A stretch of DNA of 64,000 nucleotides, from positions 6,170 through 70,169 of the forward strand of contig MGFR01000003.1 of assembly GCA_001791995.1 (NCBI GenBank), in the 5' to 3' direction. Each line of letters starts with the position of its first letter. Position 1 is the stretch's first letter. Source of the DNA: Candidatus Woesebacteria bacterium RBG_13_46_13 (lineage in GTDB: Bacteria; Patescibacteriota; Microgenomatia; UBA8517). The notes beneath the pieces are model-generated. The model made no database searches. It was not told the DNA's origin and saw nothing but the letters and a program-made list of their open reading frames with translations. This document shows positions 57,171 to 64,000 of this stretch, one piece after another. Made by a program: the position numbers and the translations under genes.

Positions 57171-57174
57171 TCGG

Positions 57175-57246
57175 AGCGGGCGAAGGGAATTGAACCCTCT
57201 GTCTCTTCCTTGGCAAGGAAGCATTTTACCGGTAAACTACGCCCGC
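57175..57246 (-). tRNA. tRNA-Gly (anticodon GCC); CCA not encoded
   Basis: Hand fold: acceptor GCGGGCG/CGCCCGC, anticodon stem CUUCC/GGAAG with loop UUGCCAA, T-loop GGTTCAATTCC. Confidence 0.8.
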
Positions 57247-57433
57247 ACTGTGCTGAAGGCGCTATCAGAGTCAAGCACCCCAATTTGATTCCAGCAATTC
57301 AATAATACTATAAACGAGGCTGAAATTCTAATTACACAACAGAAAGTTCTAAAAGCTTACCAAGCGGAGCATATAATTATACTTAAACCATATTAAAATT
57401 GTGCGAATAATTGACATAGTTTGTTGTATATAA

Positions 57434-57462
57434 TTGACTTTTTGATGATAAGTGGGTATATT
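57434..57462 (+). promoter_or_regulatory. near-consensus sigma70 promoter TTGACT-17-TATATT with AT-rich upstream region
   Basis: -35 TTGACT at 57434-57439, 17-nt spacer, -10 TATATT at 57457-57462. AT-rich UP-like tract at 57370-57430. Confidence 0.45.
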
Positions 57463-57468
57463 CGAGGT

Positions 57469-57560
57469 GTGCTGGTGGGCGAAAGCCCCTCTTCGGCTAA
57501 GGTATATCTAAGCTGAGAGCCAGCACACTAGGAGCGTCCGCGAGGACGCTTCTTGTTTCT
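57469..57560 (+). ncRNA. candidate small structured RNA (about 92 nt), function unknown
   Basis: Bounded by the promoter above and an intrinsic terminator. Predicted closing helix GUGUGCUGG/CCAGCACAC encloses a GGGC-GAAA-GCCC hairpin and a UCGGCUAAG/CUAAGCUGA hairpin. No plus-strand ORF in the transcript. Confidence 0.4.
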
Positions 57561-57944
57561 GGAACGTTTATTGTTAGGCATTACACTTACAAATTCAACC
57601 TTTCCCGTTCCTATTTTCTCAAGAACGACCCTCATTTCTGTATCTTTTGCTATTTCGCTAACCAGGCCGTATTGGATAACAGATTTCTTTTTACCCTTTA
57701 TTTCTTTTGTTGTGTTTCTAGCTTTAAACTCCTTACTTTCTCTTATTACTCTAGGTGCATGAGGTAAACACATTAACTTGAGATATTGTTCGTCAATCGT
57801 TCGTGGCCTTCGATTTTTCTTGTACAGAAGGTGATTGAAGCCATTCGATGTAAAGAAAACGGTATCTCCCAAGGCTGGACAATAAATTGAAACAATGCTG
57901 TTATAGAAAGCACGCCTTCGAAGTTTTAGAATTTCAATATTCAT
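57528..57944 (-). CDS. hypothetical basic protein (138 aa) in AT-rich segment
   Basis: ORF in a low-GC stretch between tRNA genes. Lys/Arg-rich C-terminus. The ORF-track start at 57998 would overlap tRNA-Phe, so the internal ATG at 57944 is used. No SD. Confidence 0.25.
   Translation of the reverse strand: MNIEILKLRRRAFYNSIVSIYCPALGDTVFFTSNGFNHLLYKKNRRPRTIDEQYLKLMCLPHAPRVIRESKEFKARNTTKEIKGKKKSVIQYGLVSEIAKDTEMRVVLEKIGTGKVEFVSVMPNNKRSRNKKRPRGRS
57533..57560 (+). terminator. rho-independent terminator (7-bp stem AGCGUCC/GGACGCU, GCGA tetraloop, UCUUGUUUCU tract)
   Basis: Read directly from the sequence. The U-tract occurs only on the plus strand. Confidence 0.55.
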
Positions 57945-57971
57945 TAAGCGAAAGCTAACAGAAAATTTCTG

Positions 57972-58044
57972 TGCCGAGAGTGTGAGTCGAACACACATCT
58001 GACGCTCTTCAGGCGCCCGCCGTGACCACCTTGGCTATCTCGGC
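57972..58044 (-). tRNA. tRNA-Phe (anticodon GAA); CCA not encoded
   Basis: Hand fold: acceptor GCCGAGA/UCUCGGC, anticodon stem GGCGC/GCGUC with loop CUGAAGA, T-loop TGTTCGACTCA. Confidence 0.7.
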
Positions 58045-60222: not shown

Positions 60223-60690
60223 TTACCTGGAGACTTGAATTGTGGCGCTGTTCTCCGCGTTACAGGCCTTAACGGTAACTATACTATTTGAATCCGAAAC
60301 TACCGAATAGTAGGTAGTGCTGGCAGAGCCCCCACCGGGATCAACGGGAATAGACTTCAAATACTTGGCCAAGGTCACGGAAAGATCCAAACAGGCAGCG
60401 GCCGCTCCGGTACATTGAGATCCTCCCCCTGAGCCGCAGGTTCCGAGCTGCTTTTCGGTTGAGGTAACGCCGGTTGGAAGGCTTCCGTTATTGTCGATGA
60501 TGTATTCATGAACCGCGGTCAAGACAGAATTGACGTCATTCCACCGACGGGAGTTTCTGGCATCCGCAAATCTTTGTACGGGATTTAGGGCCACGATTAC
60601 GATTGAAGCCAAAATAGCGATGATGGCAATAACCAAGAGTAATTCAATGAGTGTAAAACCGCTTTTGTTAGAAGATGGAGCGTTGGGCAT
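60223..60690 (-). CDS. type IV pilin (second PilA-like paralogue)
   Basis: KSG|FTLIELLLVIAIIAILASI with Glu+5. NPVQRFADARNSRRWNDVNSVLTAVHEY parallels the first pilin (19298..19888). Cys pair. Confidence 0.75.
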   Translation of the reverse strand: MPNAPSSNKSGFTLIELLLVIAIIAILASIVIVALNPVQRFADARNSRRWNDVNSVLTAVHEYIIDNNGSLPTGVTSTEKQLGTCGSGGGSQCTGAAAACLDLSVTLAKYLKSIPVDPGGGSASTTYYSVVSDSNSIVTVKACNAENSATIQVSR

Positions 60691-60735
60691 GTCTTTAATT
60701 ACTACAGCACATAGCCGATTTTAAGTCAAGGCCGC

Positions 60736-61107
60736 TCAAATCTCTTTCCAAAAAACCGGTGTGATCGTTGTCGCCCTGGTTGTTATAACCCGTATCGATT
60801 TGCCGTAGCCGTTGACCGTTGCCGAGACCGTAAAGGTCCAGTCAAAGCCGGTATGCGAATCCACGACCAGAGAGCAGATTCCCTCGGGCAGGGTTATTGT
60901 CGAAGGAAGGCTGTTGTTGGTATTGATGGAGTAAATCGCATCCTCAATGCAGGCTTCAACACGATTAATAGTTTCTTCCCTTCTTCTTCCGGATAGAGAT
61001 TTTTGGGCTTCGGAGATTGATGTTAGGGCCAAAGTTACACCTATAACCAAAAGAACAGCCGAAATAATCAGAACGCTTGAAAACGCAATGTAACCCTTTT
61101 GTCTCAT
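60736..61107 (-). CDS. minor-pilin-like protein with degenerate prepilin motif
   Basis: QKGYIAFSSVLIISAVLLVIGV hydrophobic N-terminus without Glu+5. Start taken at ATG 61107 to avoid a 71-nt overlap with the upstream gene; the ORF track gives 61179. Confidence 0.4.
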   Translation of the reverse strand: MRQKGYIAFSSVLIISAVLLVIGVTLALTSISEAQKSLSGRRREETINRVEACIEDAIYSINTNNSLPSTITLPEGICSLVVDSHTGFDWTFTVSATVNGYGKSIRVITTRATTITPVFWKEI

Positions 61108-61108
61108 T

Positions 61109-61633
61109 TTAATTAGATCTAACCTCCGCTGCCGAAATAAACGTCTGAGAACGATCAAATTCGCTCCTGGTAGAGGCATTAACCGAGTCGATGGTTAAGG
61201 AAAACCTGATATTTTTGGTCAGAGATCCGCTGGTTAGATTGGTAAAGGTCAGGCCGCTCACGCTAACCAAGTTTGAGGTCAGGGCTACGTCATTTGAGAG
61301 CGCGGCGCAGACAGGTGAGCCTCCTCCCCAACCGATTCTTAAAACTCCTGACGCAAGATAAATTCTGGTAGGATTTCTGGTAGCGTCGGAATTAGACATA
61401 CAAATAGAAGTGGCCGAGACGGAATTAATGTCGGAGGCATTTCTTATTTCAAAGAGAATCCTTTTTGAAGCCAGTCTAAGATTCTGGGTAACTTCTGTGT
61501 AAACGTTTGATTTGATCCTACCGTAAATAATGTTCCAGCCAAACTGGACAGCACCATAAACAAAAATTGTAACCAGAGCGATATAGACGATCAGTTCGAT
61601 AAAGGTAAAACCGTTGTTTATATTTTTTCTCAT
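61109..61633 (-). CDS. pseudopilin / minor pilin
   Basis: NNG|FTFIELIVYIALVTIFV with Glu+5. 174 aa. Confidence 0.65.
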   Translation of the reverse strand: MRKNINNGFTFIELIVYIALVTIFVYGAVQFGWNIIYGRIKSNVYTEVTQNLRLASKRILFEIRNASDINSVSATSICMSNSDATRNPTRIYLASGVLRIGWGGGSPVCAALSNDVALTSNLVSVSGLTFTNLTSGSLTKNIRFSLTIDSVNASTRSEFDRSQTFISAAEVRSN

Positions 61634-61634
61634 C

Positions 61635-63065
61635 TTATAAGGGCTTAAAACCGGCTAGTTCTTGTGCATTGGCCTCTGTTGCTCCGTATGCCCTGTCGTT
61701 AAACGCAGAGTAAGCGACGCCGTTAATGTTGTTCGTGTAATCAAACGATCCGAAAAGGGCTGGAGTAGAAAAAGTACCGATTGTCACGATTTGAAATTCG
61801 GAAGAGGCGTTATTGGTCCCCAGAAACACATAGTTGTTGGCGTTACCGAGCGCTATGTCGTTAATATTTGCCCCGGCCAGGTAGGTTCCGGAAAGCGTAG
61901 GCGCCGAGGGTGTTGAGACGCTTATCGTGTCCAATTCTCCCCCTTGTCTAGATATGATAATTGCTAAGTCAAATCCGGAGATTGAAGTTGCATCGGAACC
62001 TCCGGTAATGTCTAAAGACCCTACCAAGGAGGGCGAGGCAGGCGTTGAAACGCCTACCACTTGAAGCTCCTGGGTATTGGAGGAGGAAGCAACGAAGGCA
62101 TTAGATCCCAAAACAACAATCTCGTTGGCGTCGGCACCCAAGTCTAATGAACCGGTCAGAGAAGGGGCTGAAGGCGTACTGATATCCGTGACAATAAATT
62201 CATCATCCGCGCTGCTGTCCCTGACCAGATAGGCGTAGTTTCCGATAACAAACACGCCGTTGGCGTTGGCGGCCCCTGCAGCATCAAACGTGCCGACAGA
62301 ACTGGGGGTGGAGGGTGTACAAACGTCTATAATCTGCAATTCTGTGGCGTCCGCTTCGTTGGTAATGTAGGCGTATCTGCCCCAGACGTAGATGTTGGTG
62401 GGGTTACCCGAAAGAGTTAAAGATGAAGTCAAGCTGGGGGTAGAGGTCGAAATATCAAATATGGCAAAGTTCGGCGAGCCGGTATTCCTGGTCAGGTAAG
62501 CATAATGTCCCTGAACTTGGATTTTGTCTCCATTGTCGTTGCCAGCAAGGTCAACACTCGACTCCTGGGAAGGGCTGGCCCAGTTACCGACGGCTGTTTT
62601 TTTCCAATTCGTATAGTAAGTCTCGAAACTAACGGTATTTGCTCTGGCAATGGTGAAATTCCAACTGACGGTCGAAGTTATCTTCTTGGCGTTTAAATCC
62701 AGAACGTTGGCGCAGCCCGAAAGAACCGGATTATTCGTGGGAATATCCCGGTAGACGTCGGCAACACTGATTTGTCTGGTATAGCTACCTTTGGTGTCCG
62801 AAGAGCCCGAAAAAGCCCAAGTACCTCCACCGCTGGTAGCCCCATGGTTACCGTTGGTTAACAAAGACCAGGACTGGTTCTTGATGGAGCGTGCGGCTTC
62901 TATCCCCTCCTGGGCGTAAAGGGTTGCGTCACTTTCGTTGTCTCCGAGCCTATTTATAGAGAATATTTGCAGAATGGCGGTTACCGCGGAGACGGCGACA
63001 ACCACGAATATTCCGACTGCGACAATTACTTCAATGATTGCGAAGCCTGATTTAGATTTTACCAT
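61635..63065 (-). CDS. prepilin-leader protein fused to LVIVD-repeat beta-propeller (candidate pilus adhesin)
   Basis: N-terminus KSG|FAIIEVIVAVGIFVVVA with Glu+5. The C-terminal about 330 aa carries at least 7 tandem repeats of about 40 aa: [YAY(L/I/V)..x10-15..(E/N)(L/F)xI(I/V)D(I/V)S(T)P(S)xPSLxGS]. Confidence 0.7.
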   Translation of the reverse strand: MVKSKSGFAIIEVIVAVGIFVVVAVSAVTAILQIFSINRLGDNESDATLYAQEGIEAARSIKNQSWSLLTNGNHGATSGGGTWAFSGSSDTKGSYTRQISVADVYRDIPTNNPVLSGCANVLDLNAKKITSTVSWNFTIARANTVSFETYYTNWKKTAVGNWASPSQESSVDLAGNDNGDKIQVQGHYAYLTRNTGSPNFAIFDISTSTPSLTSSLTLSGNPTNIYVWGRYAYITNEADATELQIIDVCTPSTPSSVGTFDAAGAANANGVFVIGNYAYLVRDSSADDEFIVTDISTPSAPSLTGSLDLGADANEIVVLGSNAFVASSSNTQELQVVGVSTPASPSLVGSLDITGGSDATSISGFDLAIIISRQGGELDTISVSTPSAPTLSGTYLAGANINDIALGNANNYVFLGTNNASSEFQIVTIGTFSTPALFGSFDYTNNINGVAYSAFNDRAYGATEANAQELAGFKPL

Positions 63066-63066
63066 G

Positions 63067-63507
63067 TCAATTAATATCCAATTCCCCCGCGCTATTTAAT
63101 ATTAAGTTTTTGGTCCCGGTCGAGGCCGAAATTGTAATTGTCAGGGTAGAAGAGGGTTCGCCGCGGTCTGTCGAAAAGGTCACGTTGGAAAATCCGGAAA
63201 TGCCAACGCTGGAGGGATAACTAAAATCCTCCGAGAACGACGGAGAACCACAGGTTCCTCTAAAAAGGCGGATGTTTGTTCCGTCTAAACAGGCACCCCA
63301 GGCAACATTGTTTTTGCCGTCCATGGAATAGCTTTGGGCTTTCTTGAGGGTGCTGACAACTTTATCGACGGTGGCGTCAAGATTGGTTTGGATGAAAAAT
63401 CTGGCTAAAAAAGGAGATGTCGTTGCGGCCAGGATTGATATTAAGGCCACAACCATTAAAAGCTCTATAAAGGTAACACCGTTTTCCGGATAAGAGTTTT
63501 TCAGCAT
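63067..63507 (-). CDS. pseudopilin (GspH/FimT-like)
   Basis: ENG|VTFIELLMVVALISILAA with Glu+5. 146 aa. Confidence 0.65.
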   Translation of the reverse strand: MLKNSYPENGVTFIELLMVVALISILAATTSPFLARFFIQTNLDATVDKVVSTLKKAQSYSMDGKNNVAWGACLDGTNIRLFRGTCGSPSFSEDFSYPSSVGISGFSNVTFSTDRGEPSSTLTITISASTGTKNLILNSAGELDIN

Positions 63508-63511
63508 CTGG

Positions 63512-64000
63512 CTATCTGATACTTCCGGTAAGCTGGTAGATGGGACTGATTATTGCGATTGCAATTAAGGCCACGATAAGCCCCACGACAATCAGCAGAA
63601 TAGGCTCCAAAACGGTGGTCAGGTTTTTAGTAACATTGTCCAGCTCTTCGTCATAATAATCGGCCAAGTATAAAAGCGAGTCGGCGAGTTTACCGCTTTT
63701 TTCCCCTACCGATATCATTTTCGTAACCAGAACGGGGAAAAGACGATCTTTGGAGAGGGATTCGGTCAAGGATTTCCCCTGCTCAACCCCGGCTTGAGCT
63801 TGGTTGACTAATTTTTGAAAAGACTGGTTGGATAAAGTTTTCGCCGTAACCGCTAGGGCCTGAGATATCGGAACTCCGCTTTGCAGGAGAGTTCCCAGGT
63901 TTCTGCAGAATCGGGTAATCTGAAAATTCTTGGCGATTGCGCCCACAAAAGGAAGTCTAATAACTATCTGCCCCCAAACGGATTTAAGAGGAGTCAGGAT
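63512..64000 (-). CDS. GspF/PilC-family platform protein, C-terminal part (5'-truncated by window edge)
   Basis: The 144-aa ORF-track segment (63512..63946) is in frame to the window edge. T2SSF repeat with the SGKL motif region ISVGEKSGKLADSL and terminal TM helix. Confidence 0.7.
   Translation of the reverse strand: MLTPLKSVWGQIVIRLPFVGAIAKNFQITRFCRNLGTLLQSGVPISQALAVTAKTLSNQSFQKLVNQAQAGVEQGKSLTESLSKDRLFPVLVTKMISVGEKSGKLADSLLYLADYYDEELDNVTKNLTTVLEPILLIVVGLIVALIAIAIISPIYQLTGSIR

Follow-up and report, generated by a model that had tools for sequence, protein, structure and literature searches.

Conserved, terminator-ended RNAs that are each tied to one protein domain have been described as a kind of non-coding RNA of which DUF3800-I to -XI, drum, skipping-rope and FuFi-1 are examples, and the authors of that work gave no functional hypothesis for them (Weinberg et al. 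2017, PMC5737381). A role of the RNA as a cofactor of its protein is suspected, and unproven, for the DUF3800-, drum- and skipping-rope-associated RNAs; DUF3800 itself looks RNase H-like (PMC10910872). The locus analysed here lies in a stretch of 64,000 nucleotides (the window) of the genome of Candidatus Woesebacteria bacterium RBG_13_46_13 (assembly GCA_001791995.1, contig MGFR01000003.1, positions 6,170 to 70,169), a member of the Candidate Phyla Radiation (CPR) or Patescibacteria. It consists of a predicted small RNA (sRNA) gene on the plus strand (57434-57560) and a convergent open reading frame (ORF) on the minus strand (57528-57944) whose product resembles the uncharacterised domain LPD3. 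The RNA is almost certainly a genuine conserved sRNA gene that is obligately coupled to this LPD3-like protein.

Small RNAs that converge on an mRNA, with the 3' ends of both overlapping at a shared terminator region, are also met in type I toxin-antitoxin (TA) pairs. Such 3'-overlapping type I pairs occur in Gram-positive bacteria, with par/Fst, TxpA/RatA and BsrG/SR4 as examples of the layout; the type I pairs of Clostridia have been reviewed (PMC6563280). Other RNA antitoxins act on the protein itself. AvcI, a single labile sRNA, inhibits AvcD by binding it and disappears once transcription is shut off (PMC10511110), and the abiF motif, first known as a protein-associated motif, has turned out to be the protein-binding RNA antitoxin RCd22 of AbiF (PMC12373285). 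The modules ToxIN, CptIN and TenpIN likewise combine an RNA with a protein in two components (PMC8860590, PMC12283969).

The evidence taken together shows 57434-57560 on the plus strand to be the predicted gene for a structured sRNA of ~90 nt, in which a three-way junction is followed by a terminator. Its sigma-70-type promoter (57434-57462, +) matches 10 of the 12 consensus positions, with TTGACT as the -35 element (57434-57439), a spacer of 17 nt and TATATT as the -10 element (57457-57462), and upstream of it an AT-rich, UP-like tract can be read from the sequence (57370-57433, +). The junction core of 64 nt (57466-57529, +) was delimited by a single-sequence fold, covariance models and covariation tables. 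In the RNAfold prediction for 57462-57560, helix P1 pairs 57466-57475 with 57520-57529 in 10 bp, of which 9 are Watson-Crick pairs and the outer one is G.U; U57476 forms the joining segment J1/2; P2 (57477-57488) reads GGGC-GAAA-GCCC; and the long P3 (57489-57519) holds a conserved block in which 57494-57496 pair with 57513-57515, namely C57494-G57515, G57495.U57514 and G57496-C57513. RNAfold and a pattern scan then place an intrinsic terminator at 57530-57560 (+), with a hairpin (57530-57553) of a 10-bp stem and a GCGA loop before the U-rich tail UGUUUCU. On the opposite strand, the final ~11 codons of the convergent ORF are covered by this terminator.

A preliminary description of this DNA had proposed the promoter and the UP-like tract, a closing helix around two hairpins of which one bears a GAAA loop, a strong intrinsic terminator and an antisense position relative to the 3' end of an AT-rich hypothetical ORF, and each of these was recovered. 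It had also stated that no plus-strand ORF and no downstream plus-strand gene exist. No gene follows on the same strand, and the only plus-strand ORF, of 31 aa with a TTG start, begins ahead of the point where transcription is predicted to start. The AT-rich tract contains a second, perfect TTGACA at 57411-57416, 23 nt upstream of the -35 element of the sRNA and without a properly spaced -10 element, which could be a promoter element of vestigial or alternative kind.

Consensus scans alone do no better than chance at this locus, as 2 kb contain four promoter-like sites against 3.0 ± 1.9 expected and one terminator-like site against 2.5 ± 1.5 expected, and the case from the single sequence is its fold only. 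The minimum free energy is -52.7 kcal/mol against -32.8 ± 3.4 kcal/mol in 200 dinucleotide shuffles, none of which was equally stable (z = -5.83). The sRNA stands out from chance because of this z-score and, above all, because of its conservation with covariation in ~85 other loci. Two covariance models were used, of which R1 was built from eight close-subfamily sequences only and R2 was run over 87 loci. They score 79.1 bits (R1) and 74.4 bits (R2) on the plus strand at this site, which is the only match in the 64-kb window, and neither of them matches the minus strand anywhere in the window.

The RNA is present and convergent at all 8 close-homologue loci. The contigs of seven of the eight close homologues of the protein were examined, and in every one the same RNA was found on the strand opposite the gene, directly beyond its 3' end, with its own TTGACA-type promoter and terminator and with compensatory changes in all three helices. 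Members of only ~30% identity (L025, L028 and L029) have a convergent promoter, three-way junction and terminator as well, differing in sequence while the architecture is the same. A metagenome scan with a subfamily of 160-aa proteins gave 503 confirmed relatives; the 80 loci kept from it represent 66 unique 3' flanks, and the RNA is present in 65 of these, the exception (L034) being cut off by the contig end. Over all protein loci with an intact flank, the RNA is present in 85 of 85 and is always convergent, and the protein without the RNA was found in none. Measured from where the junction ends, the stop codon falls at -8 to +55 nt in 70 of 72 loci, and in the other two the ORF is split into fragments. 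No third gene, in the sense of another recurrent ORF family, was seen when the neighbouring ORFs of ~100 loci were clustered.

The same association is seen when the search starts from the RNA. A protein-independent scan of one genome per GTDB species, in which the P2-P3 core was represented by a degenerate DNA pattern, returned 13 matches in Roizmanbacteria, Woesebacteria, Saccharibacteria, Berkelbacteria and four metagenome-assembled genomes (MAGs) labelled "uncultured Gammaproteobacteria", and a convergent protein is present at 11 of the 13, two of the 11 being cut by the locus end. RNA without the protein occurs at two loci, L015 and L017, and these have in common an upstream sequence that differs from that of the others and contains no consensus promoter. 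These counts show the RNA and the LPD3-like gene to form an obligate, self-contained two-gene convergent cassette that is widespread in CPR/Patescibacteria. The preliminary description of the sRNA as stand-alone thus fails in the functional sense, since the AT-rich ORF beside it is its obligate conserved partner.

The four MAGs with a gammaproteobacterial label (L015, L019, L021 and L022) carry a module that is otherwise confined to CPR bacteria, and their labels may reflect errors of binning or classification, or a transfer outside CPR. In L015 the RNA-only copy (L015:1702-1766, -) lies downstream of an XRE-type helix-turn-helix (HTH) gene and is convergent on a DUF5647-like ORF of 81 aa. A DUF3800-IX RNA (RF02968, 66.8 bits) is found ~550 nt away at L015:2313-2383 (-), and the island also holds MazG-like and Schlafen-type helicase genes, so that two protein-associated sRNA motifs share one defence-type island.

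Covariation supports the junction in detail. RNAalifold recovers the three-way junction from eight sequences, with compensatory double changes in 12 of the 24 pairs. Among 72 distinct sequences, 95.4% of the pair cells are canonical, against 31-47% when the partners are slid by 1-3 columns; both sides have changed in 17 of the 24 pairs (199 cells), and none of 500 shuffles reached any of the observed pairing measures. P1 and P2 vary freely with compensation in this set, and P3 holds sequence-invariant positions, which are the C-G, G.U (kept in 54 of the 72) and G-C pairs followed by UA...AA. The pair cells include 146 wobbles, and the canonical share of 95.4% on the plus strand compares with 87.2% on the opposite strand. 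At other loci, minus-strand matches to the covariance models reach 16-21 bits only. The plus strand is regarded as the functional RNA because of these wobble cells, the covariance-model scores and the orientation of promoter and terminator; on the same grounds, a structure in the 3' untranslated region (UTR) of the minus-strand mRNA is ruled out.

The flanking signals are conserved with the fold. The best -35/-10 combination across homologous loci averages 9.4 of 12 consensus positions, against 7.3 of 12 in control windows, and the -10 element ends 3-5 nt before the start of the covariance model in 58 of 72 loci, the model itself starting 2 nt ahead of the first P1 pair. Given this fixed position, transcription should therefore begin at the base of P1. 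A hairpin followed by a T-run was found after the junction in 58 of 73 loci by a crude script, which gives a median RNA length of 90 nt. From these signals we infer that the sRNA is transcribed from its own promoter, as had been proposed for the window. R1 detects the distant RNAs at full length, on the correct strand and in the correct place, with E-values down to 4e-5, and of the 87 loci R2 detects 74 at E < 1e-3, the 13 others being recovered once the filters are switched off. The window sRNA and the RNAs of the distant subfamily are thus, by these model matches, homologous. Each locus has one copy of the sRNA, and no direct repeat of the RNA occurs in the window cassette.

The RNA belongs to no described family. 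Searched with Rfam 15 at gathering thresholds, the whole window gave only its 13 tRNAs, and in E-value mode the best results for 57250-57970 were noise (sraL at 18.2 bits with a threshold of 39, SNORD71 at 18.5 bits with a threshold of 34). Eight homologous loci gave nothing on this RNA either, and in the papers searched for structured RNAs of CPR/Patescibacteria no description of it was found. This rules out a known RNA family, in agreement with the earlier view that the motifs are not those of SRP, 6S or tmRNA, and shows that the RNA family is new and absent from Rfam 15. Two of the checks that the preliminary description had called for, an Rfam search and a search for covariation in homologous loci, thus both came out in favour of a new RNA. 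A riboswitch or cis-leader is ruled out by the lack of a downstream gene on the same strand and by the RNA's own terminator. A hammerhead or other ribozyme was also rejected, as the junction core is almost without unpaired bases and matches nothing in Rfam.

The partner gene (57528-57944, -) encodes a protein of 138 aa, a stand-alone LPD3-like α/β domain by its ORF, its homologues and a structural model. Its start at 57944 is the one that the homologues support, its stop codon TAG (57528-57530) overlaps the last bases of P1, and its GC content is 37.9% against 47.4% for the window. The protein is basic (isoelectric point, pI, 10.5; family median 10.1) and hydrophilic, with a grand average of hydropathy (GRAVY) of -0.64 and a maximum of 1.05 in a 19-residue Kyte-Doolittle window, and it has no transmembrane segment. 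The eight close homologues share 44-54% identity, one of them coming from Candidatus Roizmanbacteria; the eighth homologue, P0001, is incomplete and does not differ from the window protein. An exhaustive hidden Markov model (HMM) search extends the family to 982 clusters (50% identity) at E ≤ 1e-3, and to 358 at E ≤ 1e-10, nearly all members being stand-alone proteins of 120-165 aa. Members with a named source belong to CPR lineages (Nomura-, Doudna- and Roizmanbacteria) and carry the annotation "hypothetical"; apart from the gammaproteobacterial labels, the family is by these assignments restricted to CPR bacteria.

AlphaFold2 predicts a soluble α/β domain from an alignment of 130 sequences (predicted local distance difference test, pLDDT, 94.9), in which a helix, a β-hairpin, two helices and a four-stranded antiparallel sheet are followed by a disordered basic tail. 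Invariant or near-invariant residues are Tyr14, Phe31, Gly35, His38, Leu39, Arg48, Val106, Gly114, Phe118 and Ser120. The window protein matches Pfam LPD3 (PF18798) at 23.6-24.1 bits (E 4e-5 to 6e-5), which is under the gathering cut-off of 27 bits, and 66 of 130 family members match it at E < 0.01, the best at E = 2.3e-8. The predicted structure points the same way. Its top matches among the predicted viral structures of BFVD are LPD3 proteins, with probabilities of 1.00 and 0.98, the best at E = 3.9e-3 and a template modelling (TM) score of 0.56. LPD3 is one of 40 uncharacterised domains of the polyvalent proteins of phages and conjugative elements (Iyer et al. 2017, PMC5512222), and no RNA association has been described for it. 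Apparent mentions of LPD3 in two other papers proved to concern LPD38 and LPD39.

Many partner ORFs (e.g. L021, L022, L029, L047 and L019) lack a Shine-Dalgarno sequence but have a -10-like box whose end is 6-7 nt from the ATG, which suggests leaderless mRNAs. The window ORF begins 26 nt after tRNA-Phe with no recognisable promoter of its own, and it may be co-transcribed with the tRNA operon. In 12 loci an ORF of ~78 aa runs opposite the 3' portion of the partner gene (e.g. L050:2313-2549, -). It starts inside the sRNA and would need read-through of the terminator, and most probably it merely mirrors the conservation of the sense gene and is not a real gene.

Compared with the described RNAs tied to DUF3800 and to the domains of drum and skipping-rope, the new RNA is likewise short, conserved and structured, ends in a Rho-independent terminator, is no 5' UTR, has one partner domain and may lie on the opposite strand from it. 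Its covariation, its terminator and the LPD3-like family in all 85 protein loci place it within this kind, as a kind only and in no named family. DUF3800-IX is also a three-way junction, of ~67 nt, and is the RNA that neighbours the RNA-only copy in L015. The new RNA nevertheless has no sequence or covariance-model similarity to these RNAs, its partner is LPD3-like and not DUF3800, and its range is that of CPR bacteria. Its orientation is fixed, convergent and abutting the stop codon, in contrast to theirs, which may be either orientation on either side. Members of the partner's family match the LPD3 domain of polyvalent proteins by profile, and the predicted structure agrees, but in contrast to that domain the partner is stand-alone, chromosomal in CPR bacteria and coupled to an sRNA. 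What is new here, as far as the sequence comparisons reach, is the RNA family and the RNA-protein association with its distinctive, fixed convergent architecture.

With AvcI/AvcD and RCd22/AbiF the pair shares a single structured sRNA beside a protein gene, both together forming a two-part module of mobile or defence contexts. In the known cases the RNA exceeds its protein in amount, is the less stable of the two and neutralises the protein through direct binding. The new RNA differs in being convergent with its own promoter instead of upstream on the same strand, and the LPD3-like family is unrelated to the deaminase AvcD and to Abi_2. The pair could, by analogy, work like this broader type III class. 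Classical type III TA is ruled out by the one RNA copy per locus and by the convergent layout in all loci, as ToxIN, CptIN and TenpIN share the two-component make-up of RNA and protein but are distinguished by tandem repeats in the RNA, an upstream, co-directional position and a protein with a ToxN-type Pfam match, which the LPD3-like protein did not give. The type I pairs are like the new one in layout, but their toxin is a hydrophobic, membrane-active peptide, usually of <60 aa, and not a soluble, basic α/β protein of 138-160 aa. Type I TA is ruled out by this toxin criterion, given the 138 aa, the GRAVY of -0.64 and the soluble AlphaFold2 model. In the new pair, moreover, no second complementarity at the translation start was found, and the conserved junction lies outside the overlap in most loci.

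The extent of this overlap bears on how the RNA could act. RNA and mRNA overlap by ~30 nt in the window, and by the terminator hairpin only in the 160-aa subfamily, where the terminator is flanked by an A-tract and a U-tract and is apparently bidirectional and shared; in most loci the junction is outside the overlap. Trans-antisense pairing to the 5' region of the cognate mRNA was also considered and rejected, as no cognate-specific complementarity of the sRNA to that region was found; set against non-cognate targets, the cognate one had a median rank of 32 of 69 (p = 0.92).

The mechanism favoured here, held tentatively and at somewhat less than even confidence, is that the sRNA is a protein-binding, antitoxin-like inhibitor of its partner. 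The sRNA would be made constitutively from its strong promoter and would inhibit the protein mainly by direct binding, in the manner of AvcI with AvcD or of the abiF-motif RNA RCd22 with AbiF. The recognition surface would be the sequence-conserved P3 helix (C-G, G.U, G-C, then UA/AA) together with the junction, and P1 and P2 are proposed to be scaffold only because both covary freely. The convergent layout, with its shared or overlapping terminator, would add antisense pairing at the 3' end and transcriptional interference. Loss of the cassette, or a shut-off of the host's transcription, would let the short RNA decay and set the protein free. The protein's activity might be directed at nucleic acid and could be that of an RNase, to which only its charge, the conserved His38, Arg48 and Glu/Gln52 and a non-significant fold resemblance to proteins of the RelE/BrnT/CdiA type point. 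The structural matches in question, to the RelE-like toxin BrnT, a Salmonella TA toxin and CdiA-CT toxins, are recurrent but weak, and as none is significant they serve as a lead only.

Direct binding is favoured because the junction, in the sequence of P3 and in its shape, is conserved over deep divergence and yet lies outside the overlap in most loci, because the RNA has no cognate-specific complementarity to the mRNA 5' region, because the protein is uniformly very basic, because loci with the RNA only occur and loci with the protein only do not, and because of the abiF-motif and AvcI precedents. Several points speak against such an inhibitor. The architecture is unlike that of every established RNA-antitoxin class, as the RNA is convergent and single-copy and the toxin would not be a small peptide and would not resemble ToxN. 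For LPD3 no activity is known (PMC5512222). Searches of PADLOC, NCBIfam and PHROGs gave no match to the protein; IMG/VR contains neither the RNA pattern nor relatives of the protein, and the INPHARED phages and PLSDB plasmids contain no relatives of the pair, so that carriage by phages or plasmids is not supported by these collections. The RNA-only loci could be artefacts of assembly or decay, L017 having an assembly N-gap right after the RNA. An RNA that the protein needs as an essential cofactor, finally, would show strict linkage just as well. The further step, that the pair represents a new class of two-component conflict module, largely of CPR/Patescibacteria, in which one convergently encoded three-way-junction sRNA of ~65 nt, with a terminator in common with the protein gene, directly neutralises a stand-alone LPD3 effector through a conserved helix containing a G.U pair, is put forward with more reserve still, as a possibility that is rather doubtful at present.

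Among the alternatives, the cofactor role is the most probable, though it too is unlikely. The sRNA would then be a scaffold, activator or specificity subunit of the LPD3-like protein instead of its inhibitor, and the pair would act jointly on a target as a ribonucleoprotein, perhaps in defence or where mobile elements compete. The 1:1 linkage without a third gene, the sequence conservation of P3 with its G.U pair and the strongly basic protein agree with this role as well, the closest class of RNAs, which end in a terminator and are tied to one domain in either orientation, has no assigned function (PMC5737381), and the RNA-only copy adjoins a DUF3800-IX RNA in a defence-type island. The persistence of the RNA without its protein in L015 and L017 is not what a cofactor would lead one to expect, however; no variable single-stranded segment is present in the RNA to serve as a guide; and the convergent overlap, together with the stronger promoter of the RNA, fits repression better than co-expression. 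A purely cis-antisense action of the type I sort, in which convergent transcription and 3'-end pairing would destabilise or truncate the partner mRNA and RNA and protein would not touch, is improbable. It would draw on the invariant convergent layout, on the window subfamily, in which the terminator lies inside the last codons and a full-length mRNA would be complementary to at least ~30 nt of the sRNA, and on the seemingly bidirectional, shared terminator of the 160-aa subfamily. It cannot explain why a junction with invariant P3 positions and a conserved G.U pair is kept down to ~30% protein identity, nor does it agree with the position of the junction outside the overlap in most loci, with the lack of cognate-specific pairing to the mRNA 5' region or with a protein that is not a small hydrophobic peptide.

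A function in mobility is much less probable again. The LPD3-like protein would in that case be a nuclease or recombination factor with site specificity and, in the way of a free-standing homing endonuclease, would carry the ~0.7-kb cassette into intergenic sites, tRNA operons among them, and the sRNA would limit its expression or mark the element. The genomic contexts vary by locus, strains of ~95% identity carry alternative cassettes at the tRNA-Phe/tRNA-Gly junction described below, a 75% relative has this site empty, and an imperfect direct repeat of 11 nt brackets the cassette. Profile searches, by contrast, gave no nuclease or recombinase signature in the protein, the repeat is short and may be due to chance, and no common insertion target was seen across the loci. 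That there is no RNA gene at all, and that the structure acts at the level of DNA (as an attC-like site or a single-stranded origin) or is an elaborate bidirectional terminator of the ORF, is scarcely credible. The structure does always sit at the 3' end of the ORF, as attC does in an integron cassette, and comparative searches for RNA motifs can catch single-stranded DNA motifs too (PMC5737381). Against this stand the promoter, which is conserved, fixed in position and directly upstream, the separate terminator downstream, the 146 G.U cells, including the G.U pair kept in 54 of 72 sequences, which pair only on the plus strand, and the three-way junction, which is not attC-like. An integron attC or other single-stranded DNA element was rejected on these features.

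For CPR/Patescibacteria, whose non-coding RNAs are almost unexplored, the locus provides a new RNA family with strong covariation over ~85 loci. The RNA is tied 1:1 to a large uncharacterised protein family of 982 clusters (50% identity) and gives the LPD3 domain its first concrete partner. The system is also tiny, with one sRNA and one protein of 138 aa in ~0.7 kb, and can be synthesised directly. If the RNA does neutralise an LPD3 effector, this would give the LPD3 domain of phage and conjugative polyvalent proteins its first function and a cognate RNA ligand, would provide a working model for the unexplained protein-associated, terminator-ended RNA motifs (DUF3800, drum and skipping-rope) and would extend RNA-antitoxin biology to a new architecture.

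The whole inserted cassette spans 57247-57970, as delimited by comparison with relatives, and is flanked by tRNA-Gly (57173-57246, -) and tRNA-Phe (57971-58044, -) in a tRNA operon with the order Leu-Leu-Val-Phe-[insert]-Gly-Arg. An empty-site test was anchored on the flanking GTPase gene. In the relative L111, whose flanks are 95% and 83% identical, an unrelated cassette of 717 bp occupies exactly the tRNA-Phe/tRNA-Gly junction (L111:3099-3816); it encodes a protein of 223 aa with weak, sub-threshold HTH matches and has no RNA match. In the 75% relative L113, tRNA-Phe, tRNA-Gly and tRNA-Arg directly adjoin. By this comparison the tRNA-Phe/tRNA-Gly junction is a hot spot for cassettes, and the window cassette is shown to be a strain-variable insertion in a tRNA operon that is, to judge from these relatives, horizontally mobile. 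The preliminary description had placed the sRNA inside a tRNA cluster, which is correct as to position, between tRNA-Gly and tRNA-Phe, but the cluster is no more than the place where a mobile cassette has inserted.

In the corresponding region (L113:4848-5573), L113 carries an unrelated ORF of 161 aa between tRNA-Val and tRNA-Phe. Both this ORF and that of 223 aa in L111 were considered as members of the protein family and proved to be unrelated to it. A repeat search in the window found an 11-nt imperfect direct repeat with its left copy, AACAGAAAGTT, at 57338-57348 (+) and its right copy, AACAGAAAATT, at 57957-57967, so that the copies bracket the sRNA-protein cassette; the repeat may be an insertion scar, or chance. 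Elsewhere, the neighbouring genes differ by locus and are often those of mobile elements or of conflict systems, including a serine recombinase, an IS1595 transposase, type IV secretion system (T4SS) pilins, HepT/MNT, Fic/RhuM, Schlafen/AlbA, HsdM and a LexA-like peptidase. These changing neighbours, the low GC content of the partner ORF and the differing occupancy of the tRNA-Phe/tRNA-Gly site among relatives speak for a selfish or accessory cassette. Beside the tRNA region of the window, at 60223-63946 (-), a run of ORFs has N-terminal motifs like those of type IV pilins or pseudopilins (GFTLIELL...) and, by eye, possibly a fragment of a pilus-assembly platform protein, and this run looks like a pilus gene cluster.

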